Shown piece by piece: positions 53,860 through 57,398 of a stretch of DNA of 64,000 bases. The notes under the pieces were generated by a model. That model saw only the letters and a list, made by a program, of their open reading frames with translations. It was not told where the DNA came from and ran no database searches. A program made the position numbers and the translations under genes. The stretch covers positions 512,001 through 576,000 of the forward strand of contig CAVSGO010000007.1 in NCBI GenBank assembly GCA_963727525.1. Reading direction: 5' to 3'. The DNA is from an uncultured bacterium. GTDB taxonomy: Bacteria; Krumholzibacteriota; Krumholzibacteriia; LZORAL124-64-63. How positions within the stretch are numbered: position 1 is the stretch's first letter; every line of letters starts with the position of its first letter.

Positions 53860-54768
53860 GTGGCGATCCTGGTCGTGGGTTCAGTGGCATACGATACGGT
53901 GGAGACCCCGCGTGAAAAGCGCGAACGGCAGCTCGGCGGCAGTGCGAGTTTTTTCAGCCTCGCGGCGGGTGCCGACGCAGGCGTGCGAGTGGTGGCCGTG
54001 GTCGGTGACGACTTCCGCGAGGAGCATCTCGCGTTGCTGCGCGACCACGGCGTGGATATCGCCGGGATCGCCCGCGCTCACGGCCCCAGCTTCCACTGGT
54101 CGGGCCGCTACCACCTCGACTTCATCGAGCGCGACACGTTGCTCACCGAGCTCGGCGTGTTCGCAGGATTCAAGCCGGAGATCCCCGCTGCCTGGCGCGA
54201 GTCCGAGTACCTCTTCCTCGCCAACATCCATCCGACACTCCAGGCGGAGGTGCTCGCCGGGGTGGCCCCGCCGCGCCTCGTGGTGCTGGACACGATGAAC
54301 CTCTGGATCGAAACGACACGCACCGAACTGCTCGACGTATTGCGCAAGGTCGACGTGCTGCTGGTCAACGACTCCGAGGCCAAGCTGCTCACCGGGGAGG
54401 CGAGCCTCGTGCGCGCTGCCGCGGCGATTCGCGATCTCGGTCCCGCGCGGGTCGTGATCAAGAAGGGAGAGCACGGTGCTCTCTACTTCGGCGGAACGTC
54501 ACGCCTCGCGGTGCCGGCTCTGCTCCTGCCCGAGGTCGTCGACCCCACCGGCGCCGGCGACAGCTTTGCCGGCGGGTTCGTGGCCAGCCTCGCCGCGAGG
54601 GGTGTCGGTCGCGAAGCCAGTGACGACGCCTTCCGGCAGGCGATGATCGACGGGACCGTGGCTGCCAGCTTCTGTCCGGAGGCATTCAGTGTCGACGGAC
54701 TGCTGCGCCGCACCCCGAGCGACGTGGCCGGGCGCCGCGAGTGCTTGCTGAATATGATGGTTCCTTAG
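53860..54768 (+). CDS. PfkB-family carbohydrate/nucleoside kinase
   Basis: VVGSVAYDTVETP, LGGSA, DTMNLWI, VNDSEA, KKGEHG, DPTGAGDSFAGG. Confidence 0.93.
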   Translation: MAILVVGSVAYDTVETPREKRERQLGGSASFFSLAAGADAGVRVVAVVGDDFREEHLALLRDHGVDIAGIARAHGPSFHWSGRYHLDFIERDTLLTELGVFAGFKPEIPAAWRESEYLFLANIHPTLQAEVLAGVAPPRLVVLDTMNLWIETTRTELLDVLRKVDVLLVNDSEAKLLTGEASLVRAAAAIRDLGPARVVIKKGEHGALYFGGTSRLAVPALLLPEVVDPTGAGDSFAGGFVASLAARGVGREASDDAFRQAMIDGTVAASFCPEAFSVDGLLRRTPSDVAGRRECLLNMMVP

Positions 54769-54893
54769 TTCGGGAGACGACGAATTTTCATTTTCCATCT
54801 CATCTCATAAGCGTTTATAATAAAGCATCTTATCCTTCTTGTGTTGTCCCGTATGTCGGAGTATGCTTTGTCCGTACTCCGGACTGATCGGCA

Positions 54894-54909
54894 TGGCGCG
54901 AGGCTCGCT
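54894..54909 (+). promoter_or_regulatory. Candidate sigma54 promoter with upstream AT-rich tract and inverted repeat
   Basis: TGGCGCGAGGCTCGCT: GG 54895-96, N10, GC 54907-08. AT-rich 54783-54840. GGAGTA..TACTCC inverted repeat at 54858-54880. Confidence 0.55.
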
Positions 54910-54932
54910 ATCGGCACGAAGGAGACCCACCC

Positions 54933-55742
54933 TTGGAATGGCAACCCGACGAAAGCTCCGACTGGATCCACGACGCGGAACGTTGGATCGCGAAGATCAA
55001 GGATGTACTGCAGTGCAAGGTCGAGGTCGATCGTGATGGCGAGATCCAGGGCGTTCACGTTGTGGCCCGCCAGGGCCGTGACCCACGTCTCATCGTCCGC
55101 GACGTCGAGGGGCTCCTGAAGGCCCGGCTCGGTATCGCGGTGTTCTACAAGAAGATCGGCGTGGTGCAGGTCGTGGAGACCGACGCGCCGCAACCGGCCA
55201 GCCCCCAGACGCCCGAGGCGCCTGCCGCTGTGGCGGCCGAGCCGGACGTGGTGGAACCCGATGTGGCCGAGGACGACGACGACGATGACGTCCAGGACTT
55301 CGAGACCGACGCCATTCTCCTGGCGGAGGAACTCGCTCCCCGCATCAAGTGTGTCGGGGTGGGGTTGATGAGCACCGAGTCCGTGATTCGCGCCGAGGTG
55401 CAACTTCAGGCTGCCGGCGCGGACGCGCGCGGGACCTGCGAGGGGCCGAATCGCAGCGCGAACGACATCGAACTGATCGCCACAGCGGCCCTCGACGCCG
55501 TGGGGCAGCTATTGGACGAATCCGTGAGCCTTAACCTCGCGGAGGTCAGGGTGGCGCCGCTCGGAGGCCACGACGTGGTTTTCGCGGCGGTCGAGTTGAT
55601 CGAGGGGCGACGCGCCGAGCGCCTGTTCGGCACTTGCCAGCCCCAGCAGAATCTGCATCAGGCGGTGGTCTTCGCCGTCCTTGATGCGCTCAATCGTCGG
55701 CTGGCTCTCATGGCCTTCAAGTCGCGAGAGGCCACTGGCTGA
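54933..55742 (+). CDS. Hypothetical protein; C-terminal domain resembles the LeuA (isopropylmalate synthase) allosteric fold
   Basis: AAGGAG SD and TTG start. N-domain (GVHVVA..PRLIVRDVEGLL), acidic linker, and C-domain AEVQL..GTCEG..ATAALDAV..LFGTC..AVVFAVLDALNRRL. Confidence 0.75.
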   Translation: MEWQPDESSDWIHDAERWIAKIKDVLQCKVEVDRDGEIQGVHVVARQGRDPRLIVRDVEGLLKARLGIAVFYKKIGVVQVVETDAPQPASPQTPEAPAAVAAEPDVVEPDVAEDDDDDDVQDFETDAILLAEELAPRIKCVGVGLMSTESVIRAEVQLQAAGADARGTCEGPNRSANDIELIATAALDAVGQLLDESVSLNLAEVRVAPLGGHDVVFAAVELIEGRRAERLFGTCQPQQNLHQAVVFAVLDALNRRLALMAFKSREATG

Positions 55743-55751
55743 AACGGAGAC

Positions 55752-55938
55752 GGGAACCGGGACCGGGTGTCGATTACCACAGAGCGGAGTTGATGAGTGG
55801 AGCGGCCTTCTGCTGTCTAAGATCGCCCAAGATAGCAAGATCTAGTGCGACAGGAGGTGCCACGATGATCGAGTGGGTGCTGGATATGCTCACGAAGTGG
55901 GAGTGGTAATTTGACATCTCAGGTTCCGGTTCCCTTTT
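55752..55938 (+). other. Long-range inverted repeat (29 bp including G-U pairs) enclosing the small ORF and followed by TTTT
   Basis: GGGAACCGGGACC-GGGTGTCGA-TTACCAC (55752-55780) pairs with GTGGTAA-t-TTGACATCT-ca-GGTTCCGGTTCCC (55903-55934). Confidence 0.75.
55865..55909 (+). CDS. Small 14-aa Trp-rich peptide MIEWVLDMLTKWEW
   Basis: Near-perfect SD AGGAGGT at 55852-55858, 6 nt before ATG. ATG ATC GAG TGG GTG CTG GAT ATG CTC ACG AAG TGG GAG TGG TAA. Every sense codon ends in G/C except one. Confidence 0.65.
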   Translation: MIEWVLDMLTKWEW

Positions 55939-56063
55939 GTGATGTTCTCGCCTAAGTTGTATCCAAGAATGCGGTGCATGGGGATCAAGATAACTCAAGT
56001 CTTGTGGCCCGGCGGGCGATACTCTTCCTAGGGGCAGCCGACCATGGCGGGAAGGGCGGACAG

Positions 56064-57398
56064 GTGACCACGACGCGTCAAGCACGGCGCTGGCTTTTCG
56101 CTCCCACCTACTGGGTTTTCGTGCTTGGTGGCGCGCTTTTCCTCGTCTACTTGATTCAGCACCACGCACCCCCGCATCCGCAGTGGGGCGCGATCCTCGC
56201 GCTCTTCGCCTTCCTACTCGCAGCCGATACCAAGCTAGCGGCCTCCCAGGTCTCGGGCGGCCGCGTCATGTCGTCCAAGTGCATCGTGCTCGCAGTGATT
56301 GCGCTCTTCGGCCCCGCGGCGGCGGCGTGCATGGAGGCGGTGTCGGCCCTGTTGCGAGGGCTCATCCAGCGACGTACGACCCCCCGCAAGGCCATATTCA
56401 ATTCTGCGATGCTCGCGTCGGCGGCAGGGGCGGCCGGTCTGGTCTATGGCATCCTGCCGTTCAGCGACAACTACGCGTCGCCGCTCATCGTGCTGCCGCT
56501 CGCCGGCGCCATGGTCGTGCATTCCGTGGTGAATTCGGCCATGCTGGGCGTGATCATCAGCCTCGACGCCGACATGCCCTTGCAACGCGTCTACCGGAAC
56601 AGCTTCTTCACGGCCAAGCTGCGCGTACTGCTGGACCTGCCATTCGCCGTGATGATCGCACTGCTGTATCTCCAGGGCGGAGCCTGGACGCTGGTGCTCT
56701 TCCTTTTCCCGGTGCTTGCGCTCTACCAGAGCGACCGCCTCTACCAGCGCAACAAGGAAGCCCACATCAACAGCATTGCCGCACTGACCACGGCCCTCGA
56801 GGCAGACGAACCCTACACGCATGGACACAGCTACCGGGTGGCGAAGTTGGCGGTGACCATCGGCGGTTCCATGAACATGAACGACCGCGACCTCGAGACG
56901 CTCGAGTACGGTGGTCTGCTGCACGACATTGGCAAGATCGCGATCAGCAACGAGATCATCTGCAAGCCGGGCCGCTTGACGGAGAGCGAGTTCGAGGTCA
57001 TCAAGACCCACGCCACGATCGGCGCCGACATCGTCGAGCAGATCAAGTTCCTGGCCAAGGCCACCGACCTGATCCGCCACCATCACGAGCGCCCGGATGG
57101 CCGCGGCTACCCGCACGGGCTCAAACGCGACGAGATCTCGCTGGGCTGCGCCATCCTCAACGTCTGCGACGCCTTCGATGCCATGACCACGGACCGGCCC
57201 TACCGCAAGGCCCTGAGCGTCGAGAAGGCCATGGAGGAACTCGTACGGCACAAGGGCTCGCAGTTCGACGATAGGGTTGTCGACATCATGCTCAAGCTCT
57301 ATCATCAGGGCGAGTTCGACGACATGCGAGAGATGCGGACCAAGGATATGCCCTTTCCGACGGACGTGACGCGGACGCCGCAACGGCTGGTCTCCTGA
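56064..57398 (+). CDS. Membrane-anchored HD-GYP cyclic-dinucleotide phosphodiesterase
   Basis: About 6-7 hydrophobic segments, then PYTHGHSYRVA, LLHDIGKI, KPGRLT, HHHERPDGRGYPHGL, DAFDAMTTDRPYR. GTG start at 56064 is preferred over 55974. Confidence 0.92.
   Translation: MTTTRQARRWLFAPTYWVFVLGGALFLVYLIQHHAPPHPQWGAILALFAFLLAADTKLAASQVSGGRVMSSKCIVLAVIALFGPAAAACMEAVSALLRGLIQRRTTPRKAIFNSAMLASAAGAAGLVYGILPFSDNYASPLIVLPLAGAMVVHSVVNSAMLGVIISLDADMPLQRVYRNSFFTAKLRVLLDLPFAVMIALLYLQGGAWTLVLFLFPVLALYQSDRLYQRNKEAHINSIAALTTALEADEPYTHGHSYRVAKLAVTIGGSMNMNDRDLETLEYGGLLHDIGKIAISNEIICKPGRLTESEFEVIKTHATIGADIVEQIKFLAKATDLIRHHHERPDGRGYPHGLKRDEISLGCAILNVCDAFDAMTTDRPYRKALSVEKAMEELVRHKGSQFDDRVVDIMLKLYHQGEFDDMREMRTKDMPFPTDVTRTPQRLVS

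Follow-up and report, generated by a model that had tools for sequence, protein, structure and literature searches.

What does a 14-codon open reading frame do in the gap between two genes, and does it act through its peptide or through the RNA in which it lies? The question arises in a 64,000-nucleotide (nt) stretch of DNA (the window) from an uncultured bacterium of the phylum Krumholzibacteriota (assembly GCA_963727525.1, contig CAVSGO010000007.1, positions 512,001 to 576,000), whose genome has 4.66 Mb and 66.8% GC. All positions given here are those of the window. The short open reading frame (sORF) is located in a 321-nt gap separating two plus-strand genes, up269 and a gene for a membrane HD-GYP phosphodiesterase, the enzyme type that degrades the second messenger cyclic di-GMP (c-di-GMP). 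On comparative evidence, the sORF is a genuine, evolutionarily conserved mini-gene; it is linked to the HD-GYP gene, and a long-range RNA helix with clear covariation spans it. As for its role, we favor, at about an even chance, a cis-acting leader mini-ORF of the HD-GYP gene, whose translation would remodel the leader.

A conserved mini-gene

55865..55909, plus strand: sORF of 14 codons plus TAA, peptide MIEWVLDMLTKWEW (ATG at 55865, TAA at 55907-55909; read directly)
55852..55858, plus strand: Shine-Dalgarno (SD) site of the sORF, AGGAGGT (GGAGGTG is invariant in 25 aligned loci of the window's own family)

An earlier note on this DNA had described a strong SD at 6-nt spacing, G/C-rich third codon positions, three tryptophan (Trp) codons among 14 with W-E-W at the C-terminus, and an amphipathic pattern. 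The strong SD is there, but we read the spacer as 7 nt (AGGAGG at 55852-55857, then TGCCACG, then the ATG at 55865). Third positions are G or C in 13 of the 14 codons, both Trp features are present in MIEWVLDMLTKWEW, and the amphipathic pattern is real. Taken alone, apart from its conservation, the sORF is near chance and not beyond it: over both strands, the genome contains 1069 GGAGG-N5-9-ATG sites; 94 of these open ORFs of 8-20 codons, and just two of the 94 contain at least three Trp codons. Despite this near-chance look, we judge the sORF to be real because it is conserved across relatives.

We compared the window's own family (f1, 91 genomes) with other families of the same phylum (f3-f9), among which f5 and f6 are sister families that bear the sORF. 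A blastn search with the 308-nt gap against 40 relatives gave ORF-covering matches in four genomes (G016, G015, G004, and G006), all at E ≤ 0.005, and each of the four has a 14-codon ORF of the same type after a GGAGG site. Two further matches in that E range were short and lay off the ORF (G015:C21, query 85-110; G028:C5, query 258-286). Plain blastn thus recovered four homologues only, and codon pattern and synteny were needed. With a degenerate codon pattern, a 14-codon ORF with the GGAGGTG site was found in 39 of the 91 f1 genomes and in 16 of 28 genera, at one copy per genome except for two in G006, while the reversed control pattern had no match across all 91. When the pattern was run against 185,579 species (one genome each), it matched 64 places. 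Of these, 37 have GGAGGTG and the f1 consensus, and all 37 are in metagenome-assembled genomes (MAGs) labeled Candidatus Krumholzibacteriia/-ota, Latescibacterota, "Fibrobacteraceae", or plain "bacterium"; the other 27, which lack the SD site, have internal stops, or come from low-GC genomes, are taken as chance.

The coding signature is clear. In f1, 35 distinct nucleotide versions encode 31 peptides, with no internal stop in frame (12 and 15 in the other two frames) and no frameshift. The peptide consensus is M-[LIF]-x-[WFY]-[LIVF]-x-x-[LIMF]-[LFM]-x-[KR]-[WFY]-E-W, in which the classes at positions 2, 5, 8, and 9 (hydrophobic), 4 and 12 (aromatic), 11 (basic), and the end (Trp) are invariant over the 31 peptides. 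The ratio of nonsynonymous to synonymous differences (pN/pS) is 0.49 in the sORF frame, compared with 1.15 and 1.51 in the other two, and column entropy by codon position is 0.62/0.49/1.05. GGAGGTG and the ATG are kept in all 25 f1 loci, an SD and ATG in all 19 f5/f6 loci, and the distance from SD to ATG is fixed across these 44 leaders. The earlier note had suggested asking whether start codon and frame are kept in relatives, and whether residues or nucleotides are conserved; both start and frame are kept, and the in-frame pN/pS indicates purifying selection on residues alongside synonymous turnover. Such selection is equally expected for an arrest peptide and for a functional free peptide.

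Linkage to a membrane HD-GYP gene

54933..55742, plus strand: up269, 269 residues, no assigned family (no Pfam match; pairs with the HD-GYP gene)
56064..57398, plus strand: membrane HD-GYP (HD_5) phosphodiesterase gene (HD_5 at E 1.7e-36; motif HHERPDGRGYP)

The order of genes around the sORF is pfkB-family, up269, HD-GYP, and AIR-synthase-like (purM-like). The HD-GYP protein has a multi-pass N-terminal membrane part. Its frame is open from 55974, and its start is probably the GTG at 56064, behind GGGAAGGG, where relatives show a GGRAA/GAGG site ahead of the start codon.

Among 30 f1 loci fetched around up269, the sORF is directly downstream in 25, and in 24 of these the HD-GYP gene follows, the 25th ending at a contig end. 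In the remaining five, the purM-like gene comes straight after up269, and there is neither sORF nor HD-GYP. The HD-GYP N-terminal membrane domain is found in 41 of the 91 f1 genomes, including all 39 with the sORF; in the two extra genomes (G003 and G054) the HD-GYP gene is cut by a contig end. Given this strict co-occurrence, the mini-gene and the HD-GYP gene are therefore gained and lost together. More widely, the membrane HD-GYP is present in 146 of 208 genomes of the phylum and follows up269 in 20 of 20 loci examined in other families; by this distribution, it is an old gene of the phylum, and up269 and HD-GYP are a phylum-wide pair.

Two individual genomes differ. G006 has two copies of the module, on contigs C19 (33994-34051) and C8 (94206-94263), and an HD-GYP gene follows both. 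Residue 12 is F in one copy and W in the other, and their stop codons are different as well; either the module is truly duplicated, or the bin combines two strains. In G009 (G009:C4:124834-125624, locus L029), the match to the HD-GYP membrane domain is broken into three pieces that lie in different frames, although the sORF and RNA upstream are intact; this reflects either a decaying gene or indel errors of long-read assembly.

Co-occurrence with a membrane enzyme raises the possibility that the product acts in trans, as an amphipathic, Trp-anchored helix that would bind the HD-GYP membrane domain or the adjacent membrane and modulate activity, stability, or sensing, the RNA structure merely regulating or stabilizing the shared mRNA. 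We hold this to be possible though doubtful, and it is the main rival to an action in cis. It would explain why the sORF strictly accompanies the membrane HD-GYP and is lost with it, why the hydrophobic/aromatic/basic/Trp pattern is constant over 31 distinct peptides, and why residues are under purifying selection. Of the earlier note's suggestion of a signaling or membrane-active peptide, the amphipathic pattern stands, and a trans partner of the membrane HD-GYP survives as this main rival. Small membrane-protein partners such as KdpF, CydX, MgrB, and AcrZ have ~29-49 residues. Like them, the sORF product is hydrophobic, encoded beside its candidate membrane partner, and lost with it; unlike them, it has 11-20 residues across the families, too few for a full transmembrane span of the bilayer, and is encoded inside an elaborate regulatory RNA. 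To our knowledge, it is shorter than any small membrane partner of the kind of KdpF, CydX, or MgrB.

The structured RNA and its closing helix

55746..55939, plus strand: whole structured RNA, match of covariance model R1 (142 bits, E 3e-28; the sole match in its own genome)
55752..55764, plus strand: 5' arm of the long-range helix P1, GGGAACCGGGACC, 10 nt after the up269 stop
55922..55934, plus strand: 3' arm of P1, GGTTCCGGTTCCC, 12 nt after the sORF stop
55783..55803, plus strand: two GGAG-containing repeats, AGCGGAG at 55783-55789 and AGTGGAGC at 55796-55803, conserved in f1, f5, and f6
55804..55809, plus strand: predicted anti-SD GGCCTT, pairing with the sORF SD in minimum-energy folds
55810..55848, plus strand: predicted internal hairpin region between anti-SD and SD, from single-sequence folds of 25 f1 leaders

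When 25 f1 gaps are aligned, two conserved outer blocks stand out, CGGAACCGGCAC soon after the up269 stop and its complement GUGCCGGUUCCG after the sORF stop. Further conserved blocks are two AGCGGAGC repeats, a CCUC-type block right after the second, and the invariant GGAGGUG; the repeat consensus is AGCGGAGC...AGCGGAGCG in f1, and AGCG[AG]AGC occurs twice in f5 and f6. In the RNAalifold structure, the outer blocks pair with each other and form P1, a long-range helix of 13 base pairs (bp). P1 shows strong covariation in this alignment: 92.6% of its cells are paired and 10 of 13 pairs have compensatory changes, values that none of 500 shuffles attained, and slid controls are 26-49% paired. There are 23 G-U/U-G cells compared with four A-C/C-A cells, which points to a helix of the plus-strand RNA and not a DNA palindrome. 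All 25 f1 leaders, folded singly for minimum energy, contain P1, and a simple search for the longest helix returned it (10-16 bp) in 23 of 25 f1 loci. Its 3' arm starts 9-17 nt past the sORF stop, again in 23 of 25.

The structural statements other than P1 covariation come from energy folding. Minimum-energy folds predict that the sORF's ribosome site is masked, with the SD core fully paired in 30 of 44 leaders, mostly with (G/A)CCUC 36-61 nt upstream. Covariation in the hairpin region at 55810-55848 was not counted because the MAFFT alignment is poor there.

The covariance model was built from the f1 alignment only. It matches all 25 f1 loci with the sORF and none of the five without it, and extends to all 19 f5/f6 sORF loci examined, with no match at 14 loci of families that lack the sORF. 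In a scan of 151 sampled genomes of the phylum it matched 34, always at this locus, under stricter whole-genome filters that missed family f5 (0 of 10). All 13 P1 pairs are compensatory in a model-fitted alignment of 34 rows, which leans to the model and includes one reverse-strand row. Searches against Rfam 15 gave no match at E ≤ 10 for positions 54500-57000 of the window, and none at E ≤ 1 for seven loci from three families.

Two side observations concern this RNA. In loci L012, L018, and others, the codons for L-N-R-R at the C-terminus of up269 read GAACCGGCG, nearly identical to the P1 5' arm; this stretch could be an alternative partner for the 3' arm, or a hint at the origin of the arm. 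In addition, GGA or GGAG occurs in both repeats and in the SD, and a CsrA gene is present in the genome (82 bits, G000:C7:1012664-1012816), so that control of the leader by CsrA is conceivable from these motifs.

Is the RNA then the functional unit, with the ORF untranslated or its product irrelevant? A non-coding structured RNA, either riboswitch-like or a protein-binding leader, would be consistent with the covarying closing helix, the conserved GGAG repeats, and the predicted SD masking, as well as with the fact that one RNA model recognizes three families despite their differing peptides. However, it would leave unexplained the codon-periodic substitution with low pN/pS in one frame only, the lack of stops and frameshifts in 35 distinct sequences, the strong SD at a fixed distance from the ATG in all 44 leaders, and the retention of a Trp-ending ORF in three families. 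We give this reading very little weight.

Sister families and families without the sORF

Across the phylum, the gap that separates up269 from HD-GYP takes different forms. In f5 and f6 it contains a closing helix of different sequence, the two AGCG[AG]AGC repeats, a predicted-masked GAGGUG, and an sORF. The f5 sORF is found in 11 of 12 genomes and has 19-20 codons (for example, MFKFIIDLFFGDLLLTKTWW), and that of f6 is found in all eight genomes examined (of 10) and has 11-19 codons (for example, MFWVLGSKVKW). GAGGTG precedes all 19 of these sORFs and every one ends in Trp followed by the stop. The 3' arm of P1 begins 2-18 nt past the sORF stop in 15 of the 19 loci, and the HD-GYP start codon lies 29-63 nt after that stop. 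The f6 HD-GYP ATG is 8-12 nt past P1 and has no SD of its own, and f5 has a GGAG-type site ~10-14 nt past P1. In addition, all 11 f5 loci (L149, L150, L153-L160, and L165) have a promoter-like TTGACA-N16-18-nAnnnT box ~30 nt ahead of the 5' arm of P1, with TTGACA perfectly conserved. Because this box ends a few bases before the 5' arm, the transcript would begin with P1.

In the other families the gap is almost absent (f4 and f9) or is ~200 nt long without the sORF (f3, f7, and f8). A sigma-54-like TTGGCAT-N5-CTGC[AT] box was seen by eye ~100-150 nt before the HD-GYP start in f3 and f8 (L137-L141 and L145) and was not evident in the f7 stretch read in the same way (L152). If functional, this box would mean that regulation is solved in another way at this position.

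These comparisons bear directly on the trans-acting micropeptide. The distance of 29-63 nt to HD-GYP in f5 and f6 is like that of small operon-encoded subunits, and is in its favor. On the other hand, peptide length and sequence vary strongly among the families, the terminal Trp being the sole constant, and HD-GYP orthologues occur in five other families without the peptide, which fits a regulatory add-on better than an obligatory subunit. A micropeptide also leaves the helix after the stop, the masked SD, and the avoidance of UGA without an explanation.

A peptide of this type could also be a type I toxin-like membrane peptide, or an exported signaling or modified peptide. It is small and hydrophobic, and in the type I toxin mRNAs hok and aapA1 the 5' and 3' ends fold back on each other and the SD is masked. 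The likeness is a long-distance helix joining the RNA start to the region after the ORF, with a predicted anti-SD that masks the SD. Unlike those toxins, however, the sORF is a single copy with fixed synteny in three families, no antisense gene is evident, and some versions have only 11-12 residues, which is too short for a pore. A promoter scan of positions 55400-56400 found no promoter-like site on either strand, and no transporter, protease, or maturase gene adjoins for an exported peptide. The toxin-like nature put forward in the earlier note is accordingly disfavored by the one syntenic copy per genome and by homologous ORFs down to 11 codons, and we attach next to no credence to a toxin or an exported peptide. 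A peptide made on the ribosome and modified after translation (RiPP) or a signaling peptide was considered separately and rejected, as the neighbors (pfkB-family, up269, HD-GYP, and AIR-synthase-like) include no maturase, protease, or exporter. The HD-domain RiPP SmaX, in the available part of its description, belongs to a different HD subfamily and did not help to explain the sORF (PMC12186529).

Termination and the C-terminus of the peptide

Stop codon usage is unusual in this mini-gene. In f1, 20 of the 35 distinct sequences end in TAA, 15 in TAG, and none in TGA; the 19 f5/f6 loci have TAG in 16, TAA in three, and again no TGA. TGA is the commonest stop in the window's own genome, where it ends 60% of long ORFs. 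Since the sequences are related, these counts do not amount to a formal test; however, TAA and TAG interchange repeatedly, and TGA never appears. Residue conservation in the sORF is strongest beside the stop. The consistent avoidance of UGA and the conserved [KR]-aromatic-E-W that directly precedes the stop suggest that selection acts on termination.

Arrest at termination has precedents. TnaC is a termination-stage arrest peptide that stalls at UGA with release factor 2 (RF2). The sORF differs from it in never using UGA and has no sequence likeness to it by eye, and stalling here is only proposed. A second case is PepNL of E. coli, a 14-residue leader peptide that, according to the part of its report available, can arrest the ribosome at the stop codon and block release (PMC11890864). 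Like the sORF, it has 14 residues and lies upstream of a gene, and PepNL acts at its stop codon; by the same partial source, it stalls at UGA with RF2, unlike the sORF, which never has UGA and shows no sequence likeness by eye (PMC11890864). One proposal that would combine these features is a Trp-ending nascent chain that serves as a sensory arrest peptide, holding the ribosome at the non-UGA stop on a signal, so that P1 would stay open and the phosphodiesterase would be made. The signal might be a c-di-GMP-related nucleotide or an aromatic metabolite. We put this forward as a speculative and unlikely proposal.

The abundance of Trp codons had led the earlier note to suggest a Trp-sensing leader peptide. 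The leader part of that suggestion agrees with our results, which place the sORF in a structured leader on the same strand as the HD-GYP gene and, in f5 and f6, 29-63 nt before its start; the Trp-sensing part does not. In a classical Trp-supply attenuator, scarcity of charged tRNA-Trp would pause the ribosome at Trp codons and switch the leader structure. Known trpL-type attenuators have a 14-codon leader with Trp codons inside an alternative RNA structure. The sORF resembles them in being a 14-codon leader with Trp codons in a structured RNA. There are three such codons in the window copy, the final codon is Trp in all homologues (35 distinct f1 sequences and 19 f5/f6 loci), and a ribosome pausing on the final codons would extend to P1's 3' arm. 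Attenuation by Trp nevertheless fails because positions 4 and 12 swap freely among W, F, and Y, leaving only W14 constant, and no Trp gene takes part: what is regulated would be a gene for a c-di-GMP phosphodiesterase, with pfkB-family and purM-like genes on its flanks. Moreover, f1 has no tandem Trp run, no terminator-like site or U-tract terminator hairpin such as trpL has is found between the sORF and the HD-GYP start, and conservation also extends to [KR]11, E13, and the hydrophobic positions, none of which is needed for codon-based attenuation. We therefore regard Trp attenuation as very improbable.

A leader mini-ORF in cis

The cis-acting leader mini-ORF brings most of these observations together. 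The sORF would be embedded in a ~195-nt structured RNA belonging to the downstream HD-GYP gene. In the resting fold, the GC-rich P1 would clamp the RNA from just after up269 to 2-18 nt past the sORF stop, and the upstream CCUC-type anti-SD would mask the strong ribosome site of the sORF. A signal would free this site, and a ribosome would translate the mini-gene; at the last codons and the stop, it would have to melt the 3' arm of P1. The melting would remodel the leader and so set the amount of HD-GYP. In f5 and f6, direct translational coupling or unmasking is proposed because the HD-GYP start sits close beyond P1. In f1, the leader would act at a distance of ~130 nt, and the nascent chain, with its C-terminal [KR]-aromatic-E-W and non-UGA stop, may itself tune termination or stalling. 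The masking, the effect on HD-GYP, the stalling, and the signal are the parts that we infer. Taken together, an action in cis accounts for the clamp, the masked SD, the spacing of stop and helix, the non-UGA stops, the coupling in f5 and f6, and the orthologues without a peptide.

There is a precedent in ermC, cat, and translationally coupled leaders, where translation of a leader ORF opens a structure that controls the next gene. The shared features with ermC and cat are an SD-led short ORF in a same-strand 5' leader, a helix so positioned that a ribosome has to melt it while translating or terminating, and, in f6, a regulated start just beyond the helix (8-12 nt). In contrast to ermC and cat, the helix is a ~190-nt long-range clamp enclosing the whole ORF instead of a local hairpin, the sORF's own SD is predicted to be masked too, a link to antibiotics is not known, and the regulated start in f1 is ~130 nt away.

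Several points weigh against this leader model. The masking of the SD comes from energy folding and is partial or missing in 14 of the 44 leaders. In f1, the HD-GYP start lies 100-400 nt past P1 and has its own SD; in the window, the start proposed above is ~130 nt after P1 and 154 nt after the sORF. The spacer in f1 also contains a conserved GCCGAT box, which could be a separate promoter (a -10-like element) or part of the RNA: a loose GCCGAT-type pattern occurs in 23 of 25 f1 spacers compared with 11 of 25 upstream control stretches. A terminator scan of 55400-56400 found two terminator-like sites, both within the HD-GYP coding region and neither of them between the sORF and the HD-GYP start. 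A Rho-type C-rich tract after P1 was considered as a general output and rejected, as C exceeds G in only 16 of 25 loci, the window not among them, with medians of 0.30 for C and 0.29 for G over the 25 f1 loci. Finally, the peptide is hydrophobic and amphipathic, keeps its aromatic and charged positions, and is encoded directly before a membrane sensor, as would be expected of a trans partner, and tight spacing to the next gene also occurs in small operon-encoded subunits.

With respect to promoters, the consensus scan of 55400-56400 on both strands gave no promoter-like site, and none was recognizable by eye upstream of P1 in 17 f1 loci. The positionally conserved box of the f1 spacer reads YTG[CT]CGA[TA]A; it is found downstream of P1 at 45-60 nt from the sORF stop, or at 100-170 nt in the clade nearest the window.

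The upstream gene

The up269 gene is found in 84 of the 91 f1 genomes. Its protein had no match in Pfam and only two matches in NCBIfam, both far under the cut-offs. A structure model (mean predicted local distance difference test score, pLDDT, 80.5) shows an alpha-beta-beta-alpha-beta domain at the N-terminus, joined by an acidic, disordered linker to a C-terminal domain similar to the leucine-binding regulatory domain of LeuA/citramalate synthase (Foldseek E 2e-4, query template modeling score 0.30). On the strength of this model, up269 may be a small-molecule-binding regulator.

Significance

Standard annotation misses genes of 11-20 codons, and comparative support on this scale exists for very few of them. 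A surface-level check of the literature found no published description of this leader mini-gene RNA. Its meaning depends on how the product acts. An action in the ribosomal tunnel would make the peptide a new termination-stage arrest peptide, one working at UAA or UAG; an action in trans would place it among the shortest gene-encoded modulators of a membrane sensor; and if it is a sensory arrest peptide, the locus would be an RNA-plus-peptide switch of an undescribed kind over second-messenger turnover. Under either a cis or a trans reading, the ~195-nt RNA qualifies as a candidate for a new family in RNA databases. In three families of an uncultured phylum, the locus links a c-di-GMP-degrading membrane enzyme to a conserved peptide and to a structured RNA not described before, and these offer a testable handle on how second-messenger turnover is controlled in this phylum.

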